Origin: Escherichia phage EP335
DNA length: 64,000 nucleotides
Sequence record: MG748548
Reading direction: 5' to 3' (one strand)
In this document: piece after piece, positions 56,298-63,971 of the stretch
Position numbering within the stretch: the stretch's first letter is position 1
Layout of the letters: each line of letters starts with the position of its first letter
Translations under genes and position numbers: made by a program
The notes under the pieces: model-generated
What the model was told of the DNA's origin: nothing
The model's database searches: none
What the model saw: only the letters and a program-made list of their open reading frames with translations

Positions 56298-57398
56298 TTA
56301 CAGCAGTCGTTCTAACTGAATTTCCAAGTGATCTGGAATATATTCAGTGACGTTGTTATCGGAGACGCCAGATTCACGCATCATGTTGAGCATGCTACGA
56401 ATCTGTCCTTCTGTTGCTTCACGAGTTTCACTAATCTCTGTTTCATACAGAGCCATGATCTCGTTATGAACATCTTGAGCATTACCACGGACATATCCGA
56501 GGAAGCCATAGAAGTCAGACATATCACGAAGGGATACAACTACCGACCCACTATTATCAAGAGTTTGTAAACGAATACGCCCAACCTGACGGACAGAACG
56601 ATTACGACAGAACAGGATATCACGAGCCAGACGATAACCACTATCAAGATCTTCGTGTCTTGGGGTGTAGTCTAGAGGTAGGTGAGGGAGCATAGGGTCA
56701 AAACGAACCCTGTTAAGCATCTCAACAAACTCTTCATTGTCCATCTCTGCATTTTCAACTGCTAATTTCTTAAGAACCAAGAAGCGGTTTACCAGATTTA
56801 ACAGCTGACCTTTCTTCCACTTAGGCTCTGAGATACGGAACTCAACAGAACCGAACTGAGCCAGAGGAAGTAGGTTAAGTGATGTGTACTTATCCCAACG
56901 ATCAACAATGTGTCGGAAGAAGTTCTCACCTTCGTAGTTAAATGCTTCAGAAGCATTCATTACTTGAGCCTGCACTACCGCAAAAGCAGGACAGAAATTA
57001 CTACGGTAACGGTGATAACCAGAGCACTTAAACATCAATGCTTCATAGAAAGTCCACCCAAGGATAACTTTCTTAACGATATTGCTATCAGCATCTCGCA
57101 TATCCATATGAACGTGAGTGGAACAGCGCCAAGTCCCTTCTGCTTCGGACTCCATCACTGCCTCACTCAGATTGTTGATAGCGTCAAACAGTTCTACACC
57201 ATTGTAAGGGCGAGAACAGACCATTTCACATCCGTTGCGAAGCGAGCCATCCTCTGTACATTCCCACATATCTGCTTCGATATGATCGTCACCTTCAAGC
57301 TCCAGCTCAATACCAATACCGCATTGGAATGCGATACTCGGATGTGCTTCACTCAGACGATTACTACGGTATCCAAAAGCTTGCGCTACAGTTGTCAT
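56298..57398 (-). CDS. amidoligase-like (glutamine-synthetase-fold COOH-NH2 ligase) candidate
   Basis: N-terminal G.E.E strand motif FQCGIGIELELEG and His/Glu-rich core; assignment tentative. Confidence 0.4.
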   Translation of the reverse strand: MTTVAQAFGYRSNRLSEAHPSIAFQCGIGIELELEGDDHIEADMWECTEDGSLRNGCEMVCSRPYNGVELFDAINNLSEAVMESEAEGTWRCSTHVHMDMRDADSNIVKKVILGWTFYEALMFKCSGYHRYRSNFCPAFAVVQAQVMNASEAFNYEGENFFRHIVDRWDKYTSLNLLPLAQFGSVEFRISEPKWKKGQLLNLVNRFLVLKKLAVENAEMDNEEFVEMLNRVRFDPMLPHLPLDYTPRHEDLDSGYRLARDILFCRNRSVRQVGRIRLQTLDNSGSVVVSLRDMSDFYGFLGYVRGNAQDVHNEIMALYETEISETREATEGQIRSMLNMMRESGVSDNNVTEYIPDHLEIQLERLL

Positions 57399-58009
57399 AA
57401 CGACTCCACTAACTCCACAGTGTATTGGTTAAAATCACTTTGAATATGCTTGAACACATCAAGCAGTTGTACGGTCTGACGACCACGGCTGTCATGTCCA
57501 GCACCGAGAAGCACGCGACCAACGTGTGCTCCTTTATAATAAACAAGACCATCGGAAGGGTTGATGAAGATAAAGCGAGTCAACAAACCTTCAAAAGATG
57601 GATTAAACAGGTTATAAACCATCTCACCGGAGATGTTACGACCAAGAGAAGTTACGCCACGGAGTTTGTTACCCATCAACCCCTTAGCTCGCTGACGAAC
57701 TGGATTGATATGGGTCCAACTTACCATGTTACGACCATGTTGAAGATAACCAACATCAGGGGATTCCAGAATCAGGTTAGGGTTGAACACTCCAATCTGA
57801 ACTGTTGTACGGTTAAACCCTGAGTCTGTTTTAACCCAACGCTCTGCTTCGAACATCAAAGCCATCTCTGCTTCGTGAGAGAAGTCATCACGAGAGAACT
57901 CGCCTTGTTGGAATACGTTCATAACAAACAATGGGATGTTTAAGTTCCCACGTCTTTCAGCAATCCATGTCCCACAATAGTAATGAGAGAAGTCAGTTAC
58001 TAAGCTCAC
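57395..58009 (-). CDS. hypothetical protein in amidoligase cluster
   Basis: ORF track 204 aa, GTG start; 4-nt overlap with upstream gene. Confidence 0.45.
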   Translation of the reverse strand: MSLVTDFSHYYCGTWIAERRGNLNIPLFVMNVFQQGEFSRDDFSHEAEMALMFEAERWVKTDSGFNRTTVQIGVFNPNLILESPDVGYLQHGRNMVSWTHINPVRQRAKGLMGNKLRGVTSLGRNISGEMVYNLFNPSFEGLLTRFIFINPSDGLVYYKGAHVGRVLLGAGHDSRGRQTVQLLDVFKHIQSDFNQYTVELVESL

Positions 58010-58018
58010 GATAACCCC

Positions 58019-58906
58019 TTACGCTACCTGTAAACGTTTCAAGAACACATCTGCTTCACGAACATCGTTGGTGTTGATGATCTGGTGCAGCTTTTCAATC
58101 GGAAGGCGAGAGTGGAGGCCCATCAAGAACTCCATGTCGCTGTTTTGTACAACCTTGTCAACTTGATCATACACAAATTGACGATCTTCTTTCTTGCCAA
58201 TCCAGAAGTTTGACAGAGAGCGATACTCAATGCCATAAGGTTTGTAACGGATTGCGGATGCTTTACCGTATAGCTCTTTACGACGAGCATCACCGTCCAT
58301 CAGAACAGCAGGCAATGACAGGAAGTAATCACACAGAACGCCCAGCATCATCTGAACCTTCTTATTCACATCCAGAGAGCCAGTGACACCGATATGCACA
58401 TGACCGCCTGCTGTACGCAAGCCCTTGTTCTCTGAAGTTGGGGAAGCATTCTTTTGACCAGTGAATGCGTTGAAGTCTGGAGTACAACCAAACACGAAAG
58501 CGGACGGATGGAATGATTCCAATTCTTCTTTAGAGAAGATATGAGAACTTACACCCAGAGCCGCTTCCATGTCCTGTTTCTTCAGAACTTCGTTGGTAAG
58601 ATCAATACCACGCTGAACGTTGTCATTAAACGCTTCAAAACCTTGTTGTGGGTTGATATCAAATTCAGCAAGAACGTTGTCTTCTTGGAGACGAACATCC
58701 TTAGCCAGATCGATTTTATTTTCTTTAGAACAGCCCAGCTTTCCAGCAACAGAGGTGATGATGCCAGAAGAAGTACGAACAAACATTTCAGGGTCAGTGC
58801 CGATTAAAAAGATGCGCTTAGTCATTGTAGTATTCCACCAATTCTTTAAAGAGGGATGTGATTGTTTCTTTGTTGCTCTCTGTACTAGAGTCACAACGAC
58901 TTTCAA
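58019..58906 (-). CDS. hypothetical protein in amidoligase cluster (possible second ligase-like enzyme)
   Basis: ORF track 295 aa; internal start MTKRIFLIGTDPEMF plausible. Confidence 0.45.
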   Translation of the reverse strand: MKVVVTLVQRATKKQSHPSLKNWWNTTMTKRIFLIGTDPEMFVRTSSGIITSVAGKLGCSKENKIDLAKDVRLQEDNVLAEFDINPQQGFEAFNDNVQRGIDLTNEVLKKQDMEAALGVSSHIFSKEELESFHPSAFVFGCTPDFNAFTGQKNASPTSENKGLRTAGGHVHIGVTGSLDVNKKVQMMLGVLCDYFLSLPAVLMDGDARRKELYGKASAIRYKPYGIEYRSLSNFWIGKKEDRQFVYDQVDKVVQNSDMEFLMGLHSRLPIEKLHQIINTNDVREADVFLKRLQVA

Positions 58907-59747
58907 TACGTTCTAAGAAACCATTTACACTGATGTTAGAAATCTTTTCATCAAGAGATGAACGTTTCCAACCAGTGCTCATAGACCAAACTCTCAAAAA
59001 GGTACTCATTGAAGAGTACATCTCTGCGTTTTGGTTTCGACGACGAGCAATACGACGAAGGGCTGCACGGTCATGGTTTCGGATATACCCTGATGTGTTA
59101 TCACCTTCTCCAACTTTGTTTTGCAACCAAACATCGGTTGAAAACTCATCTGTATTGCAAATGATCGGAAGAAATGCAAATGCTGGTAAGTCGTGCGGTA
59201 AGTAGATAGATGTTGATTCATCAGTGGAATCATTAACTCTATCAAAGTTAAGCTCCCCAAAGAAATCCTTACTTACCCCAGCAAGAGCTAGAGCTAATCC
59301 AACACGACGACGGAATAGCCATTCTTCTCTATCATCAACTCCCTCTGAAAGAAAATCCATAGATTCATACTCGCAATCGAGATAACTACGGAAAGTCATT
59401 AGTCCTGTAAAAACTTTATCTGCTGCGTGTTCACGAAGATCAACCTCTACACTATTAGCAGAAGTGATTGTGAACATATCTTTGTACATAGAACAGGAGT
59501 TTAGTACATCAGCAGTATCCAACAAATGAGACTCAATCTCATCCATGTTGCAGTGAGGCCAGTAGTTAATCTTACCCATGTGTGCTGTGAAGTTATCTAA
59601 GCTGGTTCGATTACTCAGGCCATTAATATCACGAGTGCTGAAGTTGTGCATAGAGTTGTGGATACCGAAACAGACTCGGCTCGTAAAACTCTGCTCACCC
59701 ACCATATCACTAACTTCTACAGGAGCTAATGTTGTGGAAATTGCCAT
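58818..59747 (-). CDS. hypothetical protein in amidoligase cluster
   Basis: ORF track 309 aa. Confidence 0.45.
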   Translation of the reverse strand: MAISTTLAPVEVSDMVGEQSFTSRVCFGIHNSMHNFSTRDINGLSNRTSLDNFTAHMGKINYWPHCNMDEIESHLLDTADVLNSCSMYKDMFTITSANSVEVDLREHAADKVFTGLMTFRSYLDCEYESMDFLSEGVDDREEWLFRRRVGLALALAGVSKDFFGELNFDRVNDSTDESTSIYLPHDLPAFAFLPIICNTDEFSTDVWLQNKVGEGDNTSGYIRNHDRAALRRIARRRNQNAEMYSSMSTFLRVWSMSTGWKRSSLDEKISNISVNGFLERIESRCDSSTESNKETITSLFKELVEYYND

Positions 59748-59759
59748 TGTCTTTAACCT

Positions 59760-60953
59760 TTAATTTCCTAAGAAAAGTTTCGTGAGAATTGAATCCCACT
59801 CCGTACTAGGCAGTACATCAAAACTGCTATTATTTGACAGATTCGACTGTTGAAAGTGGCGAATCATTGTGTAAGTATTAACACGGTCATTGCCAAATCG
59901 AGTATACAACAACTCATTTCGAGTCTTGTCTGATAGGGAAATAGCTTTGGCAAAAGCTACAATCAGCATAGGCTCTTTGAGGGCACGATCTTGAAGGGCT
60001 TCCGGTTGAAGAATAGGTAAGAACATTGAGTTGTTTACATACAGCTCATGCTCTTCGTGTCCGGGAACGTCATACCAAACACTCGAATAGTCTTCATCAC
60101 GGAAATGTCCTTCACCAGCCATATATGACGGTTGACGCCACGCAGTCTGGCGAGGTTCTGCCATATTAGCTCCGATGCCCACTGTGTACAGTGTTACAGG
60201 GAACAGGCAGTTATCGTATTCATTACCAGTAAAGGCAACTCGTACTTCGCCAAACAGATTCTCTTTTGCGTTAATCAATCGAGAATAGGCAAGAGCTTGT
60301 AACGGAGACCAATCGTCCATAAAGAGCTTATCAAGGAAAGTCCACACATTTGCTTGCTCATCTTCTTGATAAAACAGACGATTAACCATAAGATAGAACA
60401 GGCAACGATCAGCAGGCACTGGTTCAGATACATCTTCTGTTACCACACCCATAAAACCTTTTTCATGCCAAACAAGACATGAAGGACGATCTTTATCCAT
60501 GAAAGCTTCAAGTGCTTCCATAACTGACTTGACAGTTACATCAGGTCGTTCACGATATTCAGCCCAAAGCTCAACTGCGTTCTTAGGCTTTTCATCCCCT
60601 ACATCAGCGTGATAGAAAGCATATTGGAAGGAGATGATGTTGTTGCTCCCATCCTTTCCACGCATAGGGATATGGGTTCCAGAGTTCCAGATAATACGAA
60701 TATCTTCCATTGACATTAAACTGCTTAGGAGTTCATCGCTGCCAGAGCTTTGCATCAAGCTATAGCTGCTATCCCAAACATGGACATACTGCGTCCAGCC
60801 TTCATTGGCTTCGTAGGTAATGGGGTCGTAATAATCACTATCTTCGTCACAATCATCACCACCGTGGTAGTTGCTGTGCTGAAGAAAGCCATAGCAAGGA
60901 GGCCAGACTGTTACTACATTGTCCTGCTTATCCTGCAATGTTACTGGAAACAT
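59760..60953 (-). CDS. hypothetical protein in amidoligase cluster
   Basis: ORF track 397 aa. Confidence 0.45.
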   Translation of the reverse strand: MFPVTLQDKQDNVVTVWPPCYGFLQHSNYHGGDDCDEDSDYYDPITYEANEGWTQYVHVWDSSYSLMQSSGSDELLSSLMSMEDIRIIWNSGTHIPMRGKDGSNNIISFQYAFYHADVGDEKPKNAVELWAEYRERPDVTVKSVMEALEAFMDKDRPSCLVWHEKGFMGVVTEDVSEPVPADRCLFYLMVNRLFYQEDEQANVWTFLDKLFMDDWSPLQALAYSRLINAKENLFGEVRVAFTGNEYDNCLFPVTLYTVGIGANMAEPRQTAWRQPSYMAGEGHFRDEDYSSVWYDVPGHEEHELYVNNSMFLPILQPEALQDRALKEPMLIVAFAKAISLSDKTRNELLYTRFGNDRVNTYTMIRHFQQSNLSNNSSFDVLPSTEWDSILTKLFLGN

Positions 60954-61330: not shown

Positions 61331-61487
61331 TACTCCTGTTGTTTACACTCACCAATAACCCACTGATAAGAAGTGGATTGACCTGAAAAGAAACACTGAA
61401 TAAATCCAGACGTTCTCTGCGTTACCAGTGCTAGTGCACATATCACTACCGCTGCTGCTAGCAGTTTCATATCTAATTTAGACATAT
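61331..61487 (-). CDS. unannotated small secreted protein, 51 aa
   Basis: MSKLDMKLLAAAVVICALALVTQRTSG... signal-peptide-like N-terminus; gagaggaaa RBS. Confidence 0.35.
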
Positions 61488-61504
61488 TTCCTCTCTTTGA
61501 ATTT

Positions 61505-61529
61505 AAAAAAGGACTCTCCGAAAAGAGCC
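61505..61529 (-). terminator. rho-independent terminator candidate (UUCG loop)
   Basis: minus-strand ggctct-ttcg-gagagtc followed by tttttt. Confidence 0.4.
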
Positions 61530-61718
61530 AAGCTTTAAATACAAAAAGATATTACCCAATATCTGTGGATAACCTGCTCTTAAAATATCTATCCGACGGA
61601 TGTTCGAGGATTGTTCCTCTCCCTAGCATCGGCCCCATACGGGAAATATATTAAGATTAGGTTAGTTGAGTCAGAATGACTCACATAGCCCTCCGAAGGG
61701 AAGGCTATAAATGTCACT

Positions 61719-61961
61719 CTATTTATCCCCACCAAAGGCGAGGTAGGCATCTCTGATTTCAGTAACCTGTGAATCAGGTTTGAATGCAGACAAATGTCCT
61801 GTGTTCAGGTTAACTGCGTTGGCAGGGATGATGCAACCCTCTACTTTAGTATCAGGGATTTTCATGTAGTAACTTGAAAAGTGCTCTGCTGAGAAAACTT
61901 CTCCAACAGTGATATCACTAATCTTCGCTAGAACATCCTTAGCTGGTTGCCCTATTTTCAT
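61719..61961 (-). CDS. small protein, paralog family B
   Basis: 80 aa; ISDITVGEVF...YYMKI...AVNLNTG motif shared with neighbours. Confidence 0.45.
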   Translation of the reverse strand: MKIGQPAKDVLAKISDITVGEVFSAEHFSSYYMKIPDTKVEGCIIPANAVNLNTGHLSAFKPDSQVTEIRDAYLAFGGDK

Positions 61962-62194
61962 TACTCACCTTTCTTAGCACGGTCTTTGGCAGTTTTACCA
62001 GTGCGGATACGATGGGAAACGTTAACCAGAGTGCCACCTTCAATAATGGTAACGCTCTTGTTCTTGGCAATGTCAAACACAGACTTCTCTGTGCCACCCA
62101 AGCGAATCTGCTTAGGCTCGCTGAAGGTTTGAGTGGACTTGGATTGGATGTTGAACGGCTGACGGATTGCATCGATTGCGCTTACTTTACTCAT
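61961..62194 (-). CDS. small protein (weak family B resemblance)
   Basis: internal ATG 62194 with aggag RBS. Confidence 0.4.
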   Translation of the reverse strand: MSKVSAIDAIRQPFNIQSKSTQTFSEPKQIRLGGTEKSVFDIAKNKSVTIIEGGTLVNVSHRIRTGKTAKDRAKKGE

Positions 62195-62228
62195 AGGGGA
62201 ATAGCTCCTAAAAATCATGACTGCGCAG

Positions 62229-62240
62229 AGGGAATTCCCT
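62229..62240. promoter_or_regulatory. perfect 12-bp palindrome AGGGAATTCCCT (operator-like)
   Basis: between minus-strand terminator hairpin and RBS of gene starting 62194. Confidence 0.3.
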
Positions 62241-62244
62241 ACGC

Positions 62245-62268
62245 AAAAACGACGCTAAAAGAAGCGTC
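62245..62268 (-). terminator. rho-independent terminator candidate
   Basis: minus-strand gacgct-tctttt-agcgtc followed by gttttt. Confidence 0.45.
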
Positions 62269-62427
62269 ACAGTAGTTGAAAAGAGGTACAGAAACAGGGG
62301 TTATTTAGCTACCTTTTTCTGACCGTTTACGAACCAGATAATTGAACCGTCAGGCTGTCGTTGACCGAAGCCTTTCATGGTTAGCATGTCTTCCGAAAAC
62401 TCTTTAAAAGTAATCACTTACTTACCC

Positions 62428-62673
62428 TTACATTGGAGTTAATATAATCTCTGCTTTGGCATACTTAACACCGACTTCAAGATTGTCAGCAACAGGACGA
62501 GGTTTGCCTGTACCCAAATTAACTGCTCTGCGATATCCTCCGGATACAGTCATCATCAAATAGATGGTGCTGCTGTCATCTTCTTTTAAAGTGAAGATAT
62601 CAGCGGTTGACAGATCTTTAACAAAGAGTTTCTTTTCTTCTTCGTGACGAACCTTGATATGTATTGTGCTCAT
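62428..62673 (-). CDS. small protein, paralog family B
   Basis: 81 aa; VKDLSTADIF...IYLMMTV...AVNLGTG. Confidence 0.45.
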   Translation of the reverse strand: MSTIHIKVRHEEEKKLFVKDLSTADIFTLKEDDSSTIYLMMTVSGGYRRAVNLGTGKPRPVADNLEVGVKYAKAEIILTPM

Positions 62674-62675
62674 AC

Positions 62676-62927
62676 CTACTCCTGAACCACGGACATACGA
62701 ATCATTTCTACCGGAGTGTCACCCTTCATAACACCCAGCACGCCAGTCAGAAGGTTAACTGTAGTAATCCAGTCTTTTTCTACAGAGATTTTGCTGGATA
62801 CATTGGCAACACGCATATGATACTGAGGTGATGCTGAACCTCGCTGAATTACGAAAGGGTTTCCGGGGATGATAGTATCCAGTGGATAAGTGTTATCTTT
62901 AACCTTGGGGATAATTTTCATTAGCAA
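62676..62927 (-). CDS. small protein, paralog family B
   Basis: 83 aa; LDTIIPGNPF...YHMRV...TVNLLTG. Confidence 0.45.
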   Translation of the reverse strand: MLMKIIPKVKDNTYPLDTIIPGNPFVIQRGSASPQYHMRVANVSSKISVEKDWITTVNLLTGVLGVMKGDTPVEMIRMSVVQE

Positions 62928-63190
62928 CCACTCACTAAAAGTTCAGCTGATACAGGGACAACATGGCACGTAGAATCTGGTGCTGTTACCAATCCATCAC
63001 ACAGACGAAGGGCTAAGGTACGTCCACTTTTTACGGACACATTAGGAGTATTGTGAACAAAGCCTTTAACATAGAGGGTGTCGCTGTCTGGGTGCTTGAA
63101 CACCGCTCCATTTTCTAAGGACTCGAGTCGGACACGATCTGTTCTGTTGGTAATTTTCACATTAACCCTTAACAACCTTAGCTTCAACAT
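62921..63190 (-). CDS. small protein, paralog family B
   Basis: 89 aa; LESLENGAVF...LYVKGF. Confidence 0.45.
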   Translation of the reverse strand: MLKLRLLRVNVKITNRTDRVRLESLENGAVFKHPDSDTLYVKGFVHNTPNVSVKSGRTLALRLCDGLVTAPDSTCHVVPVSAELLVSGC

Positions 63191-63407
63191 TGACAGGATA
63201 AACCTTCATGCCATCAACAGGGGCACTCAGTTCGCCATTTTCCAGTTTAACACACACAATACGACCGAGAGGTGGCTCAATCCAAGACGTCTTATCTGTT
63301 GTACATACCATGTGAATAGGTCCACATGACTCTTTTCTGAAGGTGTCTCCGCTTTTTAACTCGGACAGCTTTACAGTTTTAGTAGGACTAACATCATTAA
63401 CTTTCAT
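63162..63407 (-). CDS. small protein, paralog family B
   Basis: internal ATG 63407; LSELKSGDTF... Confidence 0.4.
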   Translation of the reverse strand: MKVNDVSPTKTVKLSELKSGDTFRKESCGPIHMVCTTDKTSWIEPPLGRIVCVKLENGELSAPVDGMKVYPVNVEAKVVKG

Positions 63408-63408
63408 A

Positions 63409-63639
63409 TTATTTACCCTGAATAATAAGTTTAGACTCGAACATCTCAACAGTATTGGATTGAGGGACTGGATAGAAAATTTCTTTGGAGTTCTGAACAC
63501 CCATTGCAGAGTGGTCTCCTATTTTCATCCAGAACTTAGGGGCTATGCTGTCACCAGTAAAACGGAAAACATCTCCATTCTCTAAGTCAGAGAAGGTCTT
63601 GGAGGGTTCTTTGCTTTTTGGTACTTGCTCAAAGTTCAT
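63409..63639 (-). CDS. small protein, paralog family B
   Basis: 76 aa; FSDLENGDVF...FWMKI. Confidence 0.45.
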   Translation of the reverse strand: MNFEQVPKSKEPSKTFSDLENGDVFRFTGDSIAPKFWMKIGDHSAMGVQNSKEIFYPVPQSNTVEMFESKLIIQGK

Positions 63640-63647
63640 CTTGATTC

Positions 63648-63971
63648 CTATTTAAGTTTAAGGCTGATATTAAGGTGCATACACGCCCTGTTCTGTACAG
63701 CGGCATAACTTCTACCGAGCATGTCTGCCATTCTCTGAATAGGCATGAATCCAGCATTACGAATAACAAACTGATCTTCTTCTTCCGTCCACTTGACACG
63801 TAGAGTAGCTCTGGAAATTTTGAATTTAGTACAAGCTGTGTTAACAGCATTCTCTGTAACATTCATAATCAAAGCTATCTCAGGGATAGAGTATTCTTTG
63901 ATCAACCGTCTAAGATTCTCGATTTGCATCGGAGTCCATATGGTTCTTCTGGCTTTCATCTCACCACCCAT
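63648..63971 (-). CDS. DNA-binding protein with two Myb/SANT-like HTH repeats (putative early regulator)
   Basis: two W-containing repeats RRTIWTPMQIENLRRLI... and RVKWTEEEDQFVIRNAG... Confidence 0.45.
   Translation of the reverse strand: MGGEMKARRTIWTPMQIENLRRLIKEYSIPEIALIMNVTENAVNTACTKFKISRATLRVKWTEEEDQFVIRNAGFMPIQRMADMLGRSYAAVQNRACMHLNISLKLK

Follow-up and report, generated by a model that had tools for sequence, protein, structure and literature searches.

Six small open reading frames (ORFs) lie close together on the minus strand between positions 61719 and 63639 of the stretch of DNA analyzed here (64 kb in all, hereafter the window). The original prediction took them for a tandem array of at least six diverged paralogs at the early end of a phage genome. 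Are they copies of one gene, and if so, what do their products do? The window is from Escherichia phage EP335, a phiEco32-like kuravirus: the DNA of the region is 85–95% identical to that of phiEco32-like E. coli podophages (Kuravirus and Nieuwekanaalvirus, subfamily Gordonclarkvirinae), and five of the six proteins have exact matches in EP335 (gp089, gp092, gp093, gp095 and gp096). All six ORFs are present where they had been placed. As judged from sequence, they are genes of one ancient family of stand-alone domains of about 75 amino acids (aa), and their most likely role is that of dispensable binding modules for host takeover.

One family of small stand-alone domains

Direct comparison of the six proteins, numbered p1 to p6 from the right, gives little to go on. 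BLASTP detects significant similarity only between p2 and p3 (E 1.7e-6) and between p4 and p6 (E 3e-4). When the six were aligned with five further copies from phage Bas89, the identity of p6 to the other copies was 16–29%. Profile–profile comparison of orthogroups with hhalign again joins p2 to p3 (96%, E 1e-9) and p4 to p6 (91%), the other pairs being marginal. At the family level, the similarity is significant for all six. When the profile was rebuilt leaving out each protein in turn together with all its BLAST-detectable relatives, the six scored E values of 5e-6 to 1e-11, and none of the 2,000 shuffles used as a control reached such a score. A profile made from 13 distant relatives, none having BLASTP similarity to any of the six, also recognizes every one of them (E 4e-6 to 3e-18). 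The same holds for the PHROG models, which were built by others and are independent of this analysis. Each protein matches at least one family PHROG at E 2.5e-15 to 3.7e-36, and there are cross-matches as well: phrog_12612 is common to p5 and p6, phrog_7431 (that of p4) is matched by p6, and phrog_6570 is matched by p1, p2, p3, p5 and p6. No further ORF in the window does better than E ~1 against the family profile, and the gap between E 1.5e-12 and ~1 is empty.

The core motif that had been noticed in the six equals the consensus of 154 family sequences, which reads F-x-D-L-x-x-G-D-V-F, then Y-M-K, then N-A-V-N-L-x-T-G. All three motifs, in the form L-x-x-G-(D/E)-V-F, aromatic-hydrophobic-K and N-A-V-N-L-x-T-G, occur in p2 to p6; the third (the VNL.TG segment) is missing from p1, the most divergent copy. 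Profile matches run from residue 1 to about residue 75 of proteins that are 76–81 aa long, as expected of a single stand-alone domain that begins at the initiator M-K-I, with short N-terminal extensions in p1 and p5.

The p1 gene (63409..63639; 76 aa, EP335 gp096, orthogroup OG7) has a leave-one-out E value of 8.7e-8, scores E 1.9e-9 with the independent profile, matches phrog_10911 and phrog_6570, and has a ratio of nonsynonymous to synonymous substitution (dN/dS) of 0.34. The corresponding data for p2 (63162..63407; 81 aa from an ATG, gp095, OG6) are a leave-one-out E value of 3.1e-10, matches to phrog_7832, 8365 and 6570, and a dN/dS of 0.20. The p3 gene (62921..63160; gp094, OG8; leave-one-out E 4e-7, dN/dS 0.24) was missed by one gene caller, and its longest ORF, starting at an ATG at 63190, would encode 89 aa. 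However, its orthologs have 79 aa and begin MKITNRT, so the start is probably the GTG at 63160, giving 79 aa instead of 89; an AAGGG ribosome-binding site precedes the junction TAAtGTG at this point. Next come p4 (62676..62921; 81 aa from an ATG, gp093, OG1), with phrog_7431 matched at 8.6e-31, a leave-one-out E value of 5.2e-6 and a dN/dS of 0.175, and p5 (62428..62673; 81 aa, gp092, OG2), with phrog_12612 matched at 3.7e-36, a leave-one-out E value of 3e-7 and a dN/dS of 0.22. The p6 gene (61719..61961; 80 aa, gp089, OG9; leave-one-out E 9.6e-12, dN/dS 0.13) encodes the copy nearest to the family consensus; it is missing from phiEco32, where an unrelated gene takes its slot.

Genes p1 to p5 are contiguous (63639 to 62428). 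Their junctions are TAAtATG, TAAtGTG, TAATG and TAGgtATG, each with a purine-rich ribosome-binding site ahead of it, and from these junctions the genes look translationally coupled. The six ORFs are not strictly consecutive, as had been proposed: p6 lies beyond a 38-aa ORF, a pair of hairpins and an unrelated basic ORF.

A predicted SH3-like barrel in a large phage family

The AlphaFold2 model of p6 (56-sequence alignment, pLDDT 82) is all beta, with five main strands and a short one at either end of the chain. The family fold is accordingly predicted to be a five-stranded SH3-like small beta-barrel, closed by two strands, the conserved 'MKI' at the N-terminus and 'A-E-L-x-I' at the C-terminus. 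A structural search with this model returned only SH3-like barrels at the top, the neighbors including uL2, the N-domains of eIF5A/EF-P, Tudor, KOW, and the SH3 domains of FeoA and IdeR; the match to the uL2, eIF5A or EF-P barrels was not significant in structure or in sequence. The conserved positions are mostly buried hydrophobics (M1, I3, F14, L17, V22, F23, Y32, M33, A49, V50, L52, F60, V66, A72 and L74) together with two turn glycines (G20 and G55). F23 never varies, and conservation is 90% or more at G20, L52, G55 and V66; the remaining sequence varies between paralogs. Polar residues conserved in the wider family (K2, D/E21, K34, N48, N51, T54 and D71) are not kept among the six.

How widespread is the family? 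An exhaustive HMMER search, run against 1.84 billion representative proteins, gave 2,669 clusters with E values of 1e-3 or better, and nearly all of the 150 clusters listed are 66–85 aa long and matched end to end. Pfam has no family that matches the six or 100 diverse relatives. For the six, an NCBIfam scan gave nothing meaningful, the PADLOC defense-system models gave no match at E up to 1, and a PDB sequence-profile search was also negative, so that no enzymatic or known-domain signature emerged and the family still cannot be placed in a known domain, as first remarked. Nine PHROGs were matched (6570, 7832, 7431, 8365, 12612, 16423, 34455, 9955 and 10911), all of unknown function, and 98 of 100 distant representatives match PHROGs of this set. 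Isolated phages that have members are the kuraviruses and their relatives, N4 (gp21) and N4-like phages, Vibrio phage 1.101.O and a T4-like Pectobacterium phage; Foldseek matches in BFVD add Erwinia, Dickeya, Klebsiella, Pseudomonas, Yersinia and Serratia phages, all the proteins being uncharacterized. One such match, A0A7L4XW47 from Escherichia phage vB_EcoP_EcoN5 (77 aa), is labeled 'Endolysin' in UniProt, probably by mistake.

Tandem arrays are seen repeatedly in phages that are unrelated: an SPbeta-like contig has four adjacent genes with five family domains, Privateer has at least four copies, in two adjacent pairs, and Vibrio phage 1.101.O also has an array. The sampled neighborhoods of family members are runs of small accessory genes. 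It is of note that in a metagenomic phage contig (L011, 2844-5927) a member lies two genes upstream of a phage NAD-salvage pair (ribose-phosphate pyrophosphokinase-like and NAPRTase-like genes), and that Privateer has a similar pair in its early region (L032, 6858-9580), a few kb from family members.

Only one cellular, multi-domain context was found for the domain. This is a SprT-like zinc metalloprotease (P0102) on Bacteroidota chromosomal contigs (L018, 3583-5019; L019, 8001-9437), whose five C-terminal repeats match the family profile (E 2.5e-9 for the whole protein in the HMMER search above, 7e-6 to 8e-4 per repeat) and share the motifs L-x-x-G-S-V-F, Y-x-K and C-L-K-L. Unlike the phage genes, this is a chromosomal bacterial gene among housekeeping genes, and its repeats are fused to a protease and strongly basic.

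Could the domain bind nucleic acids, as LSm, KOW and Tudor-like proteins do? The fold neighbors named above would allow this, and the lysine- and arginine-rich character of the SprT-linked repeat would fit it. The phage proteins themselves are different. The net charge of the six lies between -2.3 and +1.6, and the family as a whole is mostly acidic (median pI 5.4, with 3% of members basic); this near-neutral to acidic charge fits protein binding better than nucleic-acid binding. Moreover, no LSM, KOW or Tudor model of Pfam matches, and the predicted structure lacks an N-terminal helix. We consider a family of nucleic-acid binders unlikely, although the comparison with phage T4 set out at the end keeps the idea alive.

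Copy number, selection and a proposed role

In related phages the family varies from genome to genome. A 76.6-kb assembly contig (L028) matches the last 10 kb of the window at 100% identity and extends past its end; a profile scan of this contig revealed five more members upstream of the window end, in two clusters. EP335 thus has 11 copies, in keeping with the 'at least six' first proposed, and they sit in three clusters of a sigma-70-driven early block. In the nine kuravirus loci compared, the members sort into 13 orthogroups, with 1 to 10 per genome (9 in phiEco32). The block that follows a conserved regulator gene is OG7-OG6-OG8-OG1-OG2 in EP335, OG7-OG8-OG1-OG2 in phiEco32 and ES17, OG6-OG8-OG1-OG2 in Paul, OG6-OG1-OG2 in Bas89, OG7-OG1-OG2 in TH38, OG1-OG2 in KBNP1711, and OG1 only in the 68.9-kb genome of Bas93. 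OG1, the orthogroup of p4, is the most widely retained and the sole one left in the reduced Bas93 genome. Since the orthogroups are gained and lost independently, the copies are individually dispensable and cassette-like. A small-genome kuravirus clade (Bas93, contig L026, as against L025, L027 and L003) has lost most small early genes and has a single family copy left, which makes it a natural minimal comparison strain.

The original prediction described the proteins as rapidly diverging. This is not what we found. Orthologs in other kuraviruses are 49–95% identical in amino acid sequence (median per paralog 57–94%), and dN/dS for the six against their orthologs, in up to eight genomes, is 0.13–0.34, which is like, or modestly above, the 0.04–0.20 of flanking genes. 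The six genes are coding and constrained by purifying selection, with no signal of accelerated divergence. There are no DNA-level repeats in the array that would mark recent duplication, so the duplications are old; the source of variation is whole-gene gain and loss. These data also dispose of the suspicion that the ORFs might be chance frames or decayed remnants that make no product. Such a suspicion could arise because they are short and annotated only as hypothetical, and because gene calling overlooked p3. Purifying selection, conserved orthologs on dozens of contigs, highly significant profile matches, a confident fold prediction, and ribosome-binding sites at coupled junctions effectively refute it, and we give it a negligible chance.

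Independent gain and loss bears on another explanation, namely that the paralogs are subunits of one hetero-oligomer in which, as in Sm rings, the barrels join through the pairing of edge strands, so that the array would encode a single machine. Natural two-domain fusions exist (at least 9 among the top 150 matches), and one of them was modeled as two barrels with one long strand running continuously from one to the other (pLDDT 85, pTM 0.80); the apparent translational coupling of the genes would also suit co-assembly. The alignment behind this two-domain model is shallow, however, having nine sequences. In addition, N4 has a single copy, and orthogroups come and go separately, from the five-orthogroup block here to OG1 alone in Bas93, which argues against an obligate hetero-complex. 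A hetero-oligomer therefore seems improbable to us.

When are the genes expressed? In phiEco32 and SU10 the leftward minus-strand block that corresponds to the one holding the six genes is classed as early; it is transcribed by the sigma-70 RNA polymerase of the host, the promoters lying at its far end. Consistent with this, in the contig that extends the window the five-gene block is preceded, ~9.4 to 10 kb upstream, by two strong, near-consensus sigma-70 promoters. The position in an early region that was originally proposed is thus supported. The middle/late phage promoter motif TAATGTATA does not occur near the array.

Early position and dispensability lead us to infer a part in host takeover or anti-defense, and dispensable binding modules for host takeover are the most likely role. 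The proteins would be non-enzymatic binding modules made early in infection, and they would act stoichiometrically. The variable surface of each paralog would bind a different host or host-defense protein and thereby inhibit or redirect it; taken together, the paralogs would be a repertoire for tuning host takeover and host range, and would serve no core function. We rate as roughly an even bet the full proposal, in which the family consists of SH3-like barrels that are early, dispensable and paralog-specific binders of host or defense proteins.

Several points weigh against this proposal. A literature search covering N4 gp21, the early genes of phiEco32, Kuravirus and phage proteins with a small beta-barrel turned up no functional data on any family member, and in particular no record of a binding partner, phenotype or expression measurement. 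The polar residues that the wider family conserves might be the mark of a shared ligand site and not of diversified targets. The nearest structural neighbors are RNA- or translation-associated SH3-like domains, and the only cellular relative found is the very basic repeat on the SprT-like protease. Finally, purifying selection free of arms-race signs is atypical of classical anti-defense genes.

A bolder form of the same proposal is a multigene family of miniature SH3-like binders, in which the scaffold displays diversified surfaces, each copy neutralizes a different host factor or immune protein, and the copies are shuffled as cassettes and set host range. We regard this version as rather unlikely. 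If it were true, the thousands of uncharacterized members in phages of Gram-negative and Gram-positive bacteria would amount to a large, untapped stock of natural inhibitors, and they could account for part of the broad defense resistance seen, but not explained, in Gordonclarkvirinae.

A narrower idea is that the family is the restriction-evasion determinant of Gordonclarkvirinae and inhibits restriction-modification enzymes. The BASEL study calls these phages remarkably resistant to restriction-modification, with no known modification pathway or inhibitor, and the genes are early and accessory, as such a determinant might be. Yet genomes of the Bas93 type have one member, and the Bas86-93 group is described as restriction-resistant; an anti-restriction role is weakened because the one-copy isolates belong to this group. 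The six are not strongly acidic DNA mimics either, given the net charges above, and the BASEL authors favor DNA modification via a dCTP deaminase and a nucleotidyltransferase. We accordingly hold this explanation to be very improbable.

What is gained by recognizing the family? A single uncharacterized family accounts for 11 early-block genes, in genomes of this type with roughly 125 genes. It has at least 2,669 sequence clusters over many phage lineages, including the model phage N4, and has no Pfam or NCBIfam entry, solved structure or published function. Unifying it provides tractable targets (about 75 aa, soluble and individually dispensable), and phages that naturally have one copy (such as Bas92 and Bas93) or 11 copies exist, in a characterized collection. 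These targets can be used to ask what the early accessory genes of kuraviruses do; the finding alone reveals no new mechanism.

Genomic surroundings and comparison with known systems

Between p5 and p6 are two ORFs, both on the minus strand, that are not family members. The first is a 38-aa mini-ORF (62301..62417) similar to phiEco32 gp94, with no match in a hidden Markov model (HMM) scan; a 117-nt coding sequence is annotated at its position in phiEco32, ES17, Bas89, KBNP1711 and Paul. The second (61961..62194; 77 aa, pI ~10.3) encodes a basic protein similar to phiEco32 gp93 and matches phrog_6662, whose function is unknown. Two terminator-like hairpins, predicted on the same strand at 62221..62270 by a consensus scan and from the sequence, come after the mini-ORF and divide the five-gene block from the genes downstream. 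Terminator-like sites are enriched across the whole early block (L028, 1-12400), with 21 observed versus 8.5 +/- 2.7 expected, which suggests attenuation or antitermination within the early operon.

The regulator gene after which the five-gene block starts (63648..63971, minus strand) is a conserved upstream landmark. It encodes a D5-like helix-turn-helix protein similar to phiEco32 gp99, matches Pfam Sigma70_r4_2 at 1.3e-6 and phrog_323 at 4.6e-27, and is annotated as a transcriptional regulator in related phages. The helix-turn-helix is sigma-70 region-4-like and is followed by a weak Myb-like second half. The gene is kept even in the reduced Bas93 genome, and its dN/dS is ~0.04 against most relatives.

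Directly downstream of p6 is a 233-nt intergenic stretch (61486-61718, minus strand) in which seven kuraviruses share ~95% identity, even though the upstream gene varies among phages and the flanking genes are less conserved than the stretch itself. Its features are a hairpin at the 5' end, for which Bas93 has a compensating variant, a sigma-70-like sequence (CTGACT-18-TATATT), internal hairpins and a terminal intrinsic terminator. The stretch might be a regulatory leader, or else a small RNA that is conserved. Neither the Rfam nor the tRNA scans of the region, this stretch included, gave a match, and the stretch varies too little for a covariation test. Further downstream (57395-60953, minus strand) is a phiEco32-type gene cluster for COOH-NH2 ligase, amidoligase and glutamine amidotransferase, accompanied by several genes whose products are large and hypothetical. 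The annotation of Bas89 shows its COOH-NH2 ligase gene split by an inserted HNH endonuclease. In the window, the gp87- and gp88-like proteins are ~45–47% identical to those of most relatives but 96–98% identical to those of Bas89 and KBNP1711, a contrast that points to mosaic exchange.

The closest parallel to the array genes in a model phage is N4 gp21, which belongs to the same family by sequence (E 1.8e-16 against the family profile) and is a BFVD structural match. It and the members grouped in PHROGs have the same size and motifs and a similar place among small accessory genes. Where EP335 has 11 copies, N4 has just one, and in the PHROG database the family is spread over nine or more groups that are not linked to each other. 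As these relatives have no described function, the comparison carries over no mechanism.

A precedent for the inferred mode of action comes from phiEco32 itself. Its gp79 is a characterized small host-takeover protein encoded in the same leftward transcription block, and it acts purely by binding RNA polymerase. It is a four-helix protein that shows no homology to this all-beta family, and for this reason we rejected the possibility that the six are RNA polymerase regulators of the gp79 type, which bind the beta' N-terminus.

As to structural analogs, uL2, eIF5A/EF-P domain I, KOW, Tudor/PWWP, FeoA and VapX are SH3-like small beta-barrels, among them domains of translation and chromatin proteins, with which the family was compared. 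Traits of Sm/LSm/Hfq proteins were not found: the LSM models of Pfam match neither the six nor 100 relatives, and the predicted structure starts with a strand, not a helix. Among the closest known systems is that of GoF along with MotB.1 and Frd.2 of phage T4, which are paralogous, non-essential early proteins with a five-stranded SH3/LSm-like barrel (2025, PMC12152347). Like them, the EP335 proteins are paralogous early accessory proteins, are predicted to have a bent five-stranded antiparallel SH3/LSm-like sheet, and have FeoA- and IdeR-type SH3 domains among their nearest solved structures, neighbors that the T4 study lists for GoF too. The variant GoF(D25Y) stabilizes an mRNA, and this precedent together with the fold neighbors is what, by analogy, keeps nucleic-acid binding in play. 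Wild-type GoF, however, showed no RNA effect, and sequence similarity is lacking: the family HMM scores ~0 bits on all three T4 proteins, and hhalign gives 0.3% probability for the family profile against a GoF alignment that is shallow, all its sequences being at least 80% identical. The T4 proteins also have an extra C-terminal domain after a linker (119–141 aa in total) whereas the EP335 proteins end at the barrel (76–81 aa), and the T4 genes are scattered whereas those of EP335 are in tandem arrays. The EP335 array is thus a further case of small SH3-like early accessory phage proteins, one that stands out for its copy number and for the size of the uncurated family to which it belongs.

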